Assembly: GCF_056746865.1 (NCBI RefSeq)
Contig: NZ_CM163382.1
Reading direction: 5' to 3' (one strand)
Length of the DNA stretch: 64,000 nt
A program made the position numbers. The first letter of the stretch is position 1, and the number at the start of each line of letters is the position of its first letter. Positions 57,001-63,000 of the stretch are shown piece after piece.

Positions 57001-60000
57001 CACTCATCTGAAACCCGAACAGTTGTCCGTACTCCATAACGCATTAGCAAGAATGGGCAATAATGAGTCTGCCAAATCCACTTTGTGTTGATACCGATGT
57101 GTCCAAAACAACGCTGGATATTGCCGCCAGCAACACTATTGAACGGTTTTCTGTTGCCAGTGGTGCTGACGGCGTTGATTTCATCATCGCTGAACTGAGG
57201 CAGCACGATATGGCCTTTGTGTTGATGGAAGGCCGCCATAACCTGTGCGTTTCAGCCCGAAGGTTTTGAGATCGCCGTAGTTAACCCCAGGCAAGCTCGT
57301 GACTTTGCCCGTGCGATGGGATATCTGGCGAAGACTGACCCGCATGATGCGCGGTTTTTTTGCCCAGATGGCTGCAGTTATTAATTACCATCCGGAACGA
57401 GACCGCTTTATCCGGACTTTGCCGGATGCAGAACGTCAGGTTCTTAATGCCATAGTCGTTTGCAGACACCAGTTGATCGCAATGCCAGTTACTGAGCAAA
57501 ACAGGTTGTACCCGGCTCACCCGCAAAGCAAAAAAAAACATTAATATCATCAAAGCGCTGGAAGATGAACACCCACATCCGGAACCATTTTAAAGAACCA
57601 GCTGAGCACCTGAGCAACATTAAAGGCATCGGCGTAATGACTACGGCGGTGCTGGTAGCCTGTATGCGCAAACTGCTGACCATCCTGAATGCGATACTCA
57701 GAAAGAACAAAGAAATGTAATGAATCCTGCCATCAGGTTACTCCATAATTTTGTTGGTCAAGACAGTTAATTACGTGACGTATGCTCAGGCACCGGATGC
57801 CGTTTTACAGGGCTCACCTGCCATCCAGTAGACGCCCCGGCCCACGACTGCAACCATAATTACGTTGCCCAGAACCGTCATGCTGCTTCGTCTCATACTT
57901 CACGAGATAACAGGCTCTCTCCATGGCTTTCTGCATCGCTTCCACATCACCACGCTTGACCCAGAGAACAGCGGCTTCACCCGGCTTTTTGTCTGAAGCC
58001 TTCCTGGTTTCAGAACATCCACCCGACAAAGGCGTATCATCGGAAGAAGGGCGAGCATCAGATGATGTCGGTTTACGGAAAGGCGTCCGCCTGGAAAAAT
58101 GAACCAGTCCATTACCCTGCCAGGGCTCGAGATGCAGAGCACTGCACCATGCCAGCTTGATCAGCGTCGCCAGCGAAGAAGGAACGGTGAAATCCCCTGG
58201 CGAGCACCAGGTATCTTTGTTGAGCAGTAATATCACGTGATAATGTTTCCTGCCTTTTTCCTTGCCAAACTCCCGACACCAGAAATAACGCAGAGTGGTT
58301 GCACGCACACGCTTGTTGGCACGTCGTTTTTTCCGCTGGTAAGCCTGAATTTTTGCTTTCAGGGATTCGAAAAAACGAGAAATCACTGCTGAATCTAAAT
58401 CGGTATCCATAATAGTGGCAGGCATATACTCAGGAAAACGTAAATCCACCCGAATTAACGAGACGGCACGGTGCTGCACTAGGGCACTGTCGAGAAGGCT
58501 GTCAAAACGGGATAACCAGTAAGCATTGTGTATTGGTTGATTCATGATGAGAGATCTCCGTTGATTTGGATTGACTTCACATCATTAATCACTGCGGTAA
58601 AACTTTACGGCATCCCGCCATTGAGCAACGCCAATGGCTCCTGATTAAAACAGAATGAATCCCCCACGAAGAAAAGATAAACCTACACGCAGGGTAAAAC
58701 ACACAACAACGGCATAAATGGTTTTTAAAAACTACAAAGCCCGAAGGGAAACGGATCAACAGAACGTGCAAACAAAACACCAAAAACGCAATCAGAACGC
58801 TTTCTGCTGCTGTGAATCAACAACAATACCAAAACCTACAGCTTAACCACAAAACTCAATCACAGAGCCGAATAGCGCGTTTAAAACCTGTTTACAGATA
58901 ACCCTGCCCCGAGAACAAAAACCACCAACATCAGAATCGATTTTCTTATCCTGAAAACGTTACTTTTCAACACACCATAAAAACGATTAACCATCGATAA
59001 CGTAAATCTCATCTGAATCAAAACACCAGAACCAATCATCACGCTTTTTCTGAAAAGAGCCTTATGATGAAGATAATCACCTTGCACTGAGAAAAAACAC
59101 CAGGGCCAGTTAATCATCTCATCAATCTTATCGCTACAAAATCATCCATAAAACCATTTAACAAAATCATCGTAAGCACACAGTAAATCACGCCAGGTTA
59201 TCTCAGCCGGATTTGCGTTTTACATAAAAACACTTGTCTCAGGTTAACGACTAAAAACACGAAAACTCATAAAAGGTTAAATGTAACATCAGAAAAATAG
59301 AATATCATATTGATTGCTTAAACAGGAAAGATTGTTTTGTAGTAGCATTAAGCTGATTTTAGTTAACGTAAAAACAGGACTGACAGGTTTACTAAACTGG
59401 ATGTGTATCAGACAAAGCAATGTGTATAACAATACTTAATGAAAACACTTGTAGAATTGTTTATGAAAACATGTGTATGTCTGGTAAAACACTTAGGGAA
59501 GGTGCGAACAAGTCCCTGATATGAGATCATGTTTGTCATCTGGAGCCATGGAACAGGGTTCATCATGAGTCATCAACTTACCTTCGCCGACAGTGAATTC
59601 AGCAGTAAGCGCCGTCAGACCAGAAAAGAGATTTTCTTGTCCCGCATGGAGCAGATTCTGCCATGGCAAAACATGGTGGAAGTCATCGAGCCGTTTTACC
59701 CCAAGGCTGGTAATGGCCGGCGACCTTATCCGCTGGAAACCATGCTACGCATTCACTGCATGCAGCATTGGTACAACCTGAGCGATGGCGCGATGGAAGA
59801 TGCTCTGTACGAAATCGCCTCCATGCGTCTGTTTGCCCGGTTATCCCTGGATAGCGCCTTGCCTGACCGCACCACCATCATGAATTTCCGCCACCTGCTG
59901 GAGCAGCATCAACTGGCCCGCCAATTGTTCAAGACCATCAATCGCTGGCTGGCCGAAGCAGGCGTCATGATGACTCAAGGCACCTTGGTCGATGCCACCA

Positions 60001-63000
60001 TCATTGAGGCACCCAGCTCGACCAAGAACAAAGAGCAGCAACGCGATCCGGAGATGCATCAGACCAAGAAAGGCAATCAATGGCACTTTGGCATGAAGGC
60101 CCACATTGGTGTCGATGCCAAGAGTGGCCTGACCCACAGCCTAGTCACCACCGCGGCCAACGAGCATGACCTCAATCAGCTGGGTAATCTGCTGCATGGA
60201 GAGGAGCAATTTGTCTCAGCCGATGCCGGCTACCAAGGGGCGCCACAGCGCGAGGAGCTGGCCGAGGTGGATGTGGACTGGCTGATCGCCGAGCGCCCCG
60301 GCAAGGTAAGAACCTTGAAACAGCATCCACGCAAGAACAAAACGGCCATCAACATCGAATACATGAAAGCCAGCATCCGGGCCAAGGTGGAGCACCCATT
60401 TCGCATCATCAAGCGACAGTTCGGCTTCGTGAAAGCCAGATACAAGGGGTTGCTGAAAAACGATAACCAACTGGCGATGTTATTCACGCTGGCCAACCTG
60501 TTTCGGGCGGACCAAATGATACGTCAGTGGGAGAGATCTCACTAAAAACTGGGGATAACGCCTTAAATGGCGAAGAAACGGTCTAAATAGGCTGATTCAA
60601 GGCATTTACGGGAGAAAAAATCGGCTCAAACATGAAGAAATGAAATGACTGAGTCAGCCGAGAAGAATTTCCCCGCTTATTCGCACCTTCCTTAGTAGAA
60701 AATACGTGTATAACACTTACTGAAATGCTTAGTAAAAACACTTAGTAAAATATGTGTAGAATTATCTATTTAAAAAGATATGTATATAACACTTAATAAA
60801 AACATGTGTATATAGTATCATACCGACATTCTCAACATCTTCAGACACTCATGCAGACTGAATGTTCGTTTCAGTTTTTCACGGCCAGCATGGGGATTTT
60901 TGTTCTGAAAACGGAGCAGATTTACTCTGGAATTATTTTTCTGTCCCCGTATTTCAGGCCCCAGAAAAGACAATCCGAAGCAAACCGTTTGTCAGCTTCC
61001 ATATCATCTTTTACCCCCGGAAAGTGATCGCGTTTTACAACCAGAATGACAGCCATACTGATTATGTCGTCTCCCGGCCCCCTTCACATATAACATGCAT
61101 GCCTGTCATTGCTTACTGCTCCACATGACAGGATTTCACATACAGGATGCGCATTCAGTGTTTTTATCGCCACTATAACAGACAGATTACTGTCGCTTTT
61201 ACTCTTCAGATTGTTAATCTGACCACAAGAACAGTCGAACAGTACAACGACACACCCAAGGAGGATATGAGCAGTAGTTGATAGCATGTTTTAATTTATT
61301 ATGAATAGATCAAGAATAGATCGTGAATAGTTAGAGAATAGTTCTTCAGCATCTCACAGAGTGATCAAGCCTTGAAGTGATTGCTTTTTGAACACAAGTC
61401 CGGATGCAATGTTTTTTTGTTAACTTCCTTGCATATTCGATTTCCATGTGATAGTGAAAATCACCAGAAGAGAATGCGATTGAGGCGTAATCAGATGAAA
61501 CAATATGAAGATGGTTATAACGTGAATGGATATAGCTGGGAAAATGAAACAATTGAGTATTTGTTGAATGATAAACAACTGACAGATAATCACATACCTG
61601 AATGGGTTAAAAAAAATGAAATTGCAGCATTCTGGTTCTGGTTAGTTATAATTAACACAGATCCCAAACTCCTTGGGGTTCGTAATGAATTAGGGTTCAA
61701 TACAGCCATGATGGGGCTGATTCCTGCGGGGAGTATACCCATAACAACAATTCCTTCAGATCATGAAATGAGACTGGATGTTATAAGCAAATGGATTAAT
61801 GCATTAATCCTTGACAATCAATCAGATTGCTTCATCTCAACAATGCATCAAAACTGGCTGCAGATCGAAAAGAGAAACGAAGCCAAATGGCTTAAAAAGA
61901 ATACAGAACAACTCGAATGGGCATGGAAATATATCAATGCACGCATCCCGCACACGTATCTTTCCTGGTTTTATCCTGTAAGTGATAACGAAAGATACAT
62001 TGCTATCGTAGTTTTACTAAAAATTTTATTCCCCGCAGATACACCATACTTACAGCAGCCAAAAGTACTTCACTATGGGGTTGCCGCAAAAGAAAAATTT
62101 TTCGACAAGATGCACAATGCATTCCGAAAACAGTTTACCGACGGAAAAAAAGATAAGCGGGTACAAATCAACGTTAAAATATCATCAGATGCAAAACGTA
62201 CTCTGGACAGACTGACCAGAGAACTGAAAACAACACAACAGGCTGTCCTGGAACATCTGATTCAGAACCACAGGCTGGTGATTCAGAACCACAGACTGTA
62301 TTAACTTTCACCACTTCTGCTCCTGCCGATTTTCTTCTTTTGGTAGTGTCTCCTGGCTGCGGATATCAGATACTTTTCCGTCATTTTGTTGCAGAACTCT
62401 TCAATGTAGTTAATCATTTTCTGGTGTGCTTTCAGCTTTTCTTCCCCGGGGGACGCTTTCAGATAAATGTCCTCCTTTTCCACAAGCGCATTGACAAACT
62501 CCCCTAAACATCCCTGGTTATAAAGCGACGTGAAAAACAACACATCCCCCAGTCTCTCCAGTAACTGTGGTTTATCCCCGAAATGTTTTTTTATACTTTC
62601 AAAAGGTTTTCTATTTTCCGGATCAAAAAAAACACTTAATCCCAGTCGCTTATATTCCTGGTAAAAAAGTTCAAACGTCGGGGATGCTGAACGGCAAATA
62701 AACGAAGACTGCGCCCATGGATTAAAATCTGTGACACGCCTCCCCTCCCGCACTTCCTGTCGTGTCAGCGGTGGTTCAGCAAACCAGGCGTCCAGCTCAG
62801 CCGAATCGTTATCCCTGCTCAAAACCTCATACAAACTGCCCGTGAACGGTTGAGCCGTTTGTTTTGTTGCTTCGCCTTCTGATTGTCTGAATCCATCCAC
62901 TTTTCTCCGGATATTACGCGGAATCAGCATAAAAGGCGGGACATTAAGTGATAAACGTTTACCCGTCATGCGATACCATTGACCTACCTCAACCTTAATC

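Follow-up and report, generated by a model that had tools for sequence, protein, structure and literature searches.

An IS5-split repeat array, two conserved boxes and an HUH nuclease gene in CP4-like islands of Escherichia coli

What is the function of a short array of degenerate direct repeats that lies between an HUH-family nuclease gene and the variable cargo of an integrative island, and what has the insertion sequence IS5 done to it? The question is raised by a 64,000-nt stretch of contig NZ_CM163382.1 (assembly GCF_056746865.1; hereafter "the window", to whose positions coordinates refer). A preliminary description had proposed that IS5 inserted into an iteron-like array upstream of the cargo genes, of the type found at replication origins or multi-site operators, next to a gene with an HUH-like motif (annotated "inovirus Gp2 family", here Gp2). 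Elsewhere, IS5 can activate its neighbors through fusion promoters or relief of silencing (PMC5493358; PMC11894529). We find that the array abuts a short conserved sequence, box 1, which is followed by a second one, box 2; these boxes are the most conserved parts of the region and had been missed by the preliminary description. As far as we could find, the combination of array, box 1 and box 2 beside a widespread HUH gene is undescribed, and we tentatively read it as an origin-like element.

A repeat array that predates IS5

The effect of the insertion was removed by deleting IS5 and one copy of its TTAG duplication (58546-59496 joined to 60696-61400, 1656 bp). In this IS-free sequence, the array spans 237 bp of AT-rich DNA, as would be expected of an unwinding region, with a period of ~12-13 nt (24-25), and is built from two types of unit, ATGTGTAT and AACACTTA. 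Four of the six exact copies of ATGTGTAT and four of the five exact copies of AACACTTA in the window (both strands) fall within the array, all of them on the + strand. Allowing one mismatch, the IS-free array includes eight ATGTGTAT and six AACACTTA units, where dinucleotide-preserving shuffles gave means of 1.1 and 0.45 and none of the 300 shuffles matched these counts. Autocorrelation maxima were found at 12, 24, 37 and 48 nt, and Tandem Repeats Finder reported a 13-nt unit on the IS-free allele (AAAACACTTAGTA, 5.2 copies, 65% matches). No further cluster of the array motifs was found in the window.

The inserted element corresponds to IS5 in every respect considered (length, terminal repeats, intact reading frame, Py-T-A-Pu duplication and existence of an empty-site allele). 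Its terminal inverted repeats are 16 bp long and imperfect (GGAAGGTGCGAACAAG / CTTATTCGCACCTTCC), its DDE transposase reading frame is undamaged and ends at 60545, and it matches annotated IS5 copies at 96-99.5%. The IS-free sequence was retrieved at 100% identity and in one unbroken piece from 39 of the 40 best E. coli records listed, with 143 records at least 99% identical and some match in 1876 of 5426 complete E. coli genomes. Since the empty-site allele exists, the event is a simple transposition into pre-existing DNA, and the proposal of an insertion into an array already present, with a clean TTAG duplication, is borne out by this comparison with IS-free elements. Among the 5,426 complete E. 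coli genomes, not one covered a query spanning the left junction, and within the collection searched only the strain of the window has the IS5 allele.

The insertion itself is ordinary, and nothing found here points to its activating a neighboring gene. IS5 targets Py-T-A-Pu, with TTAG among the listed sites, and favors AT-rich, readily destabilized DNA (PMC5493358). The array (GC ~0.31-0.35) has repeat units holding CTTAG or CTTAA several times and is thus an expected "hot seat" for IS5, in which this insertion looks like a one-off. Copies of IS1 or IS3 lie within the same gap in other E. coli genomes (H1, NZ_CP115370.1; H57, NZ_CM173937.1; H78, NZ_CP083263.1), which makes the gap a recurrent target of insertion sequences. 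In the window, IS5 leaves three units on the gene side and four to five units on the other side, the latter contiguous with both boxes, much as in the shortest arrays that occur naturally. IS5 also puts an extra 1.2 kb between this part and the HUH gene with its left units, and the right (3') end of IS5 lies 120 bp from a -10-like hexamer in box 1. The allele represents a natural "split-array" mutant, which can be compared with many IS-free alleles.

The array is also conserved in related elements, a point on which the preliminary description had made its proposal depend. It was found at the same position in all of nine E. coli alleles (gap identity 77-100%), with three to eight ATGTGTAT-type and three to eight AACACTTA-type units per allele; the changes are insertions or deletions of whole units that retain the motifs, and the motifs are strictly one-stranded across alleles 77-90% identical overall. 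The array and the next 130 nt occur in 1861 of 5426 E. coli genomes and the full-length 243-aa gene type in 1873, which indicates that the two are co-inherited. In every case, the array lies in a gene-free gap beside the Gp2 gene (~1.7 kb in the IS5-free locus L001, 1.5-2.4 kb across fetched alleles). The region was found in four of 72,556 plasmid records and in no phage record.

Conserved boxes upstream of an HUH nuclease gene

Box 1, at the right end of the array (Table 1), shows the highest conservation in the distal intergenic region (profile 0.9). Gp2 homologues from Providencia, Proteus, Serratia, Rosenbergiella, Citrobacter and further Enterobacterales have its consensus ATAWWTACYATACCRACA upstream of their genes in an unchanged orientation, and in genera other than Escherichia its distance from the Gp2 start is 144-370 nt. 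Box 2 (consensus ACTCTGRWATTA) follows 70-93 nt past box 1 in 17 of 18 loci scored. Together, the two boxes were found in at least 10 enterobacterial genera, in which the Gp2 proteins are just 30-45% identical. This bipartite module comes in 30 distinct versions of 116-140 nt with a highly variable interior, near-identical boxes persisting across genera despite saturating divergence of the flanks. Its orientation relative to the HUH gene is constant across these genera (at least 10), even where the other neighbor, reading in the direction of the HUH gene, has its 3' end toward the module (L044, L047, L048, L050). Around the boxes, the DNA is AT-rich and has notably little structure (DNA folding z-scores mostly >= 0).

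Directly upstream of box 1, the repeats differ by genus, with seven to eight units in E. coli, three copies of AAACACATA in Providencia heimbachae and two of a 23-bp repeat in Proteus myxofaciens. A test of the most-repeated 8-mer in other genera mostly gave no excess over shuffles, so that it is the boxes, together with a few clear local repeats, and not a universal array that support the cross-genus case. Among viral contigs, the box 1 pattern had 70 matches, about chance level by a rough estimate, and box 2 was also present in just three of them, whose UViG identifiers look isolate-genome-derived rather than metagenomic.

The outer edge of the module is sharp. Homology among three E. coli island variants stops ~10 nt past box 2 (window 60936-60950; L001-L009) and gives way to different cargo, and many BLAST matches terminate at this same point (query position 1198-1213). 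The module can serve as a marker of the boundary between backbone and cargo. Depending on the variant, the cargo that follows is a pair of genes (269 and 315 aa), one gene of 376 aa or one of 407 aa. As the preliminary description had it, the array thus lies upstream of variable cargo genes.

Judged by motifs, profiles and predicted fold, the product of the neighboring gene is a genuine HUH nuclease, and the HUH-like motif noted earlier (Table 1) is real. The protein matches the Pfam families YagK_YfjJ_C (2e-36) and REP_ORF2-G2P (1e-7), and PHROG replication-initiator families match it around the HUH motif. In an alignment with 12 homologues (23-65% identity to Gp2), R32/D34 (motif 1), H101/H103 (HUH) and Y213-L214-x-K216...K220 are invariant or nearly so, such that the metal-binding HUH and catalytic Tyr motifs of a nuclease cognate to an HUH Rep origin are both present. 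The predicted fold is Rep/NS1-like, with matches that include NS1, adeno-associated virus (AAV) Rep and, in complex with its repeats, the origin-binding domain of RepB; a PDB sequence search with the family profile gave no hit, to a solved Rep or otherwise. A gene for an AlpA-family regulator lies further downstream in the window, and Gp2 is immediately followed by AlpA in Brenneria and Providencia.

Because this neighbor is a true HUH nuclease, the class to which the array had been assigned (iteron-like, origin or multi-site operator) is reasonable, but the narrower label of a classical plasmid iteron does not apply. In place of evenly spaced 17-22-bp repeats, the array has degenerate ~12-13-nt units of two motif types, with ATGTGTAT spaced 19-51 bp apart. 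No RepA/pi/TrfA-type initiator gene lies beside it, the neighbors being the HUH nuclease and two hypothetical proteins among which the only initiator-like match is weak (RepC_IncLM/RHH, E 0.002-0.27, below cut-off).

Table 1. Position of the array, the boxes and associated features in the window.
Feature	Position	Strand	Remarks
AlpA-family regulator gene	51704-51940	-	Pfam Phage_AlpA 2.7e-10; downstream of the HUH gene, same direction; alternative candidate array binder
HUH-family nuclease gene ("inovirus Gp2 family", 243 aa)	57814-58545	-	HYHVILLL motif; reads away from the array
A/C-rich, G-poor spacer	58600-59394	+	From HUH gene to array; dispersed AAAACAC; in the Escherichia form of the island only
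Left array half	59395-59496	+	Three ATGTGTAT-type and three AACACTTA-type units
IS5	59497-60691	+ (transposase)	Complete, 1195 bp; TTAG duplication 59493-59496 / 60692-60695
Right array half	60696-60811	+	Five ATGTGTAT-type matches (<=1 mismatch, two overlapping), three AACACTTA-type units, AATGCTTA; last ATGTGTAT overlaps box 1
Box 1, ATATAGTATCATACCGACA	60810-60828	+	19 nt; overlaps last ATGTGTAT; -10-like TATAGT at 60811-60816
Box 2, TTACTCTGGAATTA	60922-60935	+	93 nt after box 1; outer edge of conserved backbone
Four tandem 11-bp repeats, GAATAGATCAA GAATAGATCGT GAATAGTTAGA GAATAGTTCTT	61303-61346		149 nt upstream of the 269-aa gene (61495-62304, +)

To the right of the gap, the window holds two hypothetical genes, the 269-aa gene and one at 62301-63248 (-), then a YeeP/YfjP-type GTPase gene and a DUF905/DUF932/antirestriction/RadC/DUF987/CbeA-CbtA block typical of CP4-like integrative islands. 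The cargo proteins of the window have no PADLOC match, no NCBIfam name and no Pfam match above threshold. The preliminary description had named the 269-aa protein ("cargo protein A") as a candidate binder of the array. This suggestion was rejected: the array is kept in islands that lack the gene, which makes the protein an unlikely binder, and the gene has repeats of its own. These 11-bp repeats look like the operator of the 269-aa protein, whose C-terminus has weak, sub-threshold ribbon-helix-helix, RepB-regulator and RepC_IncLM matches. A small open reading frame through box 2 was likewise discarded, as it is open in E. coli (73 aa, 60806-61027) and interrupted by stops in all frames in other genera.

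Several other features of these loci are recorded here in their own right. A perfect 8-bp GC-rich hairpin, GGCCTGAC...GTCAGGCC, lies between the boxes in Tenebrionibacter (L018, ~1840-1875) and Siccibacter (L020, ~2795-2830; coordinates on the locus + strand, sequence read on the - strand), and E. coli has nothing equivalent. Five Providencia/Proteus loci (L024, L029, L030, L038, L041) have three 12-nt direct repeats (AAAATACTACGT-like) within the final ~60 nt leading up to the GTPase start codon, which are distinct from the box module. In Escherichia, the spacer between the HUH gene and the array constitutes an extra A/C-rich stretch of ~800 bp without equivalent in the homologous loci of other genera (GC skew ~-0.4, AT skew +0.3 to +0.4). 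AAAACAC occurs nine times on the + strand of the 1656-bp IS-free gap, mostly in this spacer (shuffle mean 0.7, 0/300 shuffles reaching this count), and in a rightward transcript the spacer would be C-rich and G-poor, i.e., rut-like.

On the other side, the ~60 nt before the Gp2 start codon (58546-58610, conservation 0.93-0.96) are duplicated at 52768-52830, downstream of a second YagK/YfjJ paralog (52862-53428, -) and upstream of a 201-aa gene, which suggests recombination between paralogous modules. Between this paralog and a yfjI-like helicase/primase-like gene (55025-56911, -) lies a second AT-rich gene-free stretch (53429-55024, 1.6 kb, GC 0.30-0.35), in which neither a repeat array nor box 1 was found. 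An IS110-family transposase remnant (frameshifted fragments, ~57000-57720) separates the yfjI-like gene from the Gp2 gene and carries the same annotation in L001. In the CP4-57 island of K-12, the yfjI-yfjJ gap is just 152 nt; we count K-12 neither for nor against the module.

Origin-like element, promoter or passive repeats

The structural neighbors of Gp2 are origin-binding nickases, which recognize tandem short direct repeats beside their nick site. The reading we favor, if tentatively, is that the island's HUH nuclease has a conserved cis module of which the array forms the variable, iteron-like portion, i.e., an origin-like element. If Gp2 works as other HUH Rep proteins do, multiple copies of it would bind the short repeats, all oriented on one strand, and so be brought to the neighboring core, which is conserved and melts easily (box 1, possibly box 2); a nick made there in one strand would initiate rolling-circle-type replication, or transfer, of the island once excised. 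The arguments for an origin-like element are the identity of the protein and its structural relatives, the strict linkage and constant orientation of the module relative to the gene, the association of lineage-specific repeats with a conserved core (the pattern of specificity repeats plus core), and a conservation that reaches beyond the needs of a promoter. The whole-unit changes in copy number that leave the motifs intact, and the AT-rich, little-structured DNA around the boxes, also speak for it. A direct-repeat locus next to a conserved core linked to a rep gene, as at HUH Rep origins, is indeed what the locus displays.

A number of observations weigh against this interpretation. No conserved DNA hairpin was found around box 1 that could present a nick site in a hairpin or cruciform loop; many HUH origins show a nick-site hairpin, although phiX174-type origins lack one. 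The array units are irregularly spaced, the distance from gene to array in E. coli is ~850 bp, and a gene is located between the HUH gene and the module in Siccibacter (L020) and Tenebrionibacter (L018). Box 1 includes a good -10 hexamer. Finally, no functional study of the Gp2 family was found in the searchable literature, where papers only list the gene as part of the genomic-island core. An apparent resemblance of box 1 and the AACACTTA unit to the phiX174 origin/CTTG-ATA nick consensus and to the CRESS nonanucleotide was not counted as evidence.

The -10 hexamer makes a promoter role equally compatible with box 1, and the origin-like and promoter/operator readings are not mutually exclusive. 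Box 1 could be the -10/start region, lacking a -35, of an activator-dependent rightward promoter, and the repeats a multi-site operator at which an AlpA-type regulator (AlpA being the likely one) or Gp2 would turn on the cargo/GTPase/antirestriction side, and perhaps also the divergent gp2-alpA operon; in that case, IS5 would have cut off the distal sites, with its own end now lying within 120 bp of the promoter. We consider this account the main rival, possible but doubtful. In 17 of 18 loci, positions 2-7 of box 1 agree with TATAAT at five to six of six bases, and the hexamer invariably reads away from gp2, but a -35 is missing in every genus (two to four of six matches), and the 12 nt past the hexamer (ACTATACCRACA) are conserved at least as well as the hexamer, which is unusual for a promoter. 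A promoter scanner reported TTAATA-17-TATCAT at 60793-60821 (9/12), and promoter-like sites across the whole region are fewer than in shuffles. A rightward gene follows in most loci, and in L018 and L020 the module stays by a rightward operon (~370-480 nt upstream of it) rather than by gp2; however, a same-direction downstream gene or RNA is not found in all loci: in four of them a convergent gene has its 3' end facing the module, and several E. coli variants have a first right-hand gene that reads the other way. In favor of this account, alpA belongs to the gp2 operon and AlpA activates island genes in E. coli phage-inducible chromosomal islands (PICIs; PMC6092414); the ability of IS5 to create fusion promoters or relieve silencing (PMC5493358; PMC11894529) would also fit. 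Box 2 and the sharp homology boundary past it are left unexplained by a promoter. As for AlpA itself, we know of no binding-site consensus for the protein of this island.

Readings in which the array has no partner encoded by the island, or serves an RNA, fare less well. It is unlikely that the array lacks a specific binder altogether and is a degenerate minisatellite made by slippage in an AT-rich acquired spacer (e.g., H-NS-coated), easily deformed and hence struck by IS5. Such an origin would be consistent with the low GC (0.31-0.35), the freely variable copy number, the presence of IS1 and IS3 in the same gap, the uniqueness of the IS5 allele and the preference of IS5 for Py-T-A-Pu in destabilized AT-rich DNA (PMC5493358). 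Nevertheless, it does not account for one-stranded motifs being retained across alleles 77-90% identical overall, for the analogous repeats and near-identical boxes in other genera despite saturated flank divergence, or for the retention of array and boxes in ~1,860 genomes. Still less probable is a small regulatory RNA, or a sense/antisense pair, encoded between the boxes with the array as upstream control region. The -10-like elements do face each other over 70-93 nt (box 1 rightward, the reverse complement of box 2, TAATAT, leftward), and the length of the module is held to 116-140 nt across its 30 versions. Yet the IS-free region has no Rfam covariance-model match at E <= 1, the module of the window folds no better than shuffles (z = -1.1 and -0.9), the 30 versions have mean z of -0.96 and -0.60 without a shared fold, and there is no consistent terminator.

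We give very little credence to a cluster of DnaA boxes, by which host DnaA would be recruited for a theta-type origin, titration or regulation. The idea stems from ATGTGTATAA being the reverse complement of TTATACACA: the array has one perfect and five one-mismatch copies of TTATNCACA, all on the - strand (shuffle mean 1.2, 0/300 shuffles reaching this count). This enrichment is, however, automatic, because ATGTGTAT is repeated. The TTAT half is lost in other alleles (e.g., ...GTACAGC, GCGTATAGC), several units read ACGTGTAT, which changes the final A of the CACA end, no plasmid-type initiator is encoded nearby, and a spacing of 19-51 bp is unlike that of DnaA boxes in oriC arrays.

Returning to the origin-like reading, a broader version can be conceived, in which the YagK/YfjJ/"Gp2" nucleases of CP4-like islands in general act on lineage-specific iterons, box 1 and box 2 and so make these islands self-replicating or mobilizable after excision, or in which the site past box 2 is a point of cargo exchange; we regard this generalization as speculative and rather unlikely. 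If it were true, this would concern "cryptic prophage" islands carried by about one third of E. coli genomes and by many Enterobacterales. CP4-57/CP4-44-like islands are among the commonest E. coli accessory elements, and they carry adhesins, toxin-antitoxin, antirestriction and resistance genes along with variable cargo. A defined cis site beside an HUH gene would offer a concrete substrate for the biochemistry of binding, nicking, origin function and transfer. If the module is simply a promoter with its operator, the locus is an ordinary regulatory region struck by an ordinary insertion sequence.

Relation to known systems

The IS5 insertions at bglGFB, glpFK, flhDC and fucAO resemble the present one in their Py-T-A-Pu target (TTAG) within destabilized AT-rich intergenic DNA (PMC5493358). 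Unlike in those cases, neither selection nor recurrence was seen here, the allele being unique, and the downstream promoter is hypothetical. The distance of 120 bp between the 3' end of IS5 and the -10-like element is comparable to the activating position at glpFK.

Two types of mobile element provide partial parallels for the array. The origin of PICIs consists of two iteron sets around an AT-rich spacer, immediately 3' of pri-rep, with AlpA as activator, and the description of these islands does not include an adjacent HUH nuclease gene such as the one found here (PMC6092414). Our locus likewise belongs to an integrative island of E. coli that has genes for AlpA and a YfjI/DUF3987 helicase-primase-like protein and contains an AT-rich region of repeats. 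In contrast to a PICI origin, its array neither lies 3' of the yfjI-like gene, where the stretch 53429-55024 is devoid of one, nor forms two iteron sets flanking a spacer, and no packaging genes were noted; the array is thus not an origin of the PICI type. Cox/Vis/Xis-type small proteins of P2/P4-like elements bind cooperatively to multi-site operators of degenerate same-orientation repeats upstream of promoters. The one-orientation degenerate repeats and the AlpA/Vis-like gene of the same element recall this arrangement, a likeness that we take as a lead only; it differs in that the array motif is found nowhere else in the window, which thus has no att-proximal copies.

The closest parallel is with the double-strand origins of HUH Rep proteins (pMV158 RepB, parvovirus/AAV Rep, geminivirus iterons). 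Origins of pMV158, AAV and geminiviruses have separate "bind" and "nic" loci, the former represented by direct repeats for pMV158 RepB and tetranucleotide repeat elements for AAV Rep. The island differs from these systems in lacking a conserved core hairpin, in the irregular spacing and two unit types of its array, in the second conserved box 70-93 nt away, and in being a chromosomal integrative island rather than a plasmid or virus. It shares with them an HUH gene beside same-orientation short repeats that abut an AT-rich core, as well as repeats that vary by lineage next to a core that is conserved. The array and boxes beside this HUH gene are therefore best filed as a variation on a known pairing, that of an HUH nuclease with repeat-flanked cis sites.

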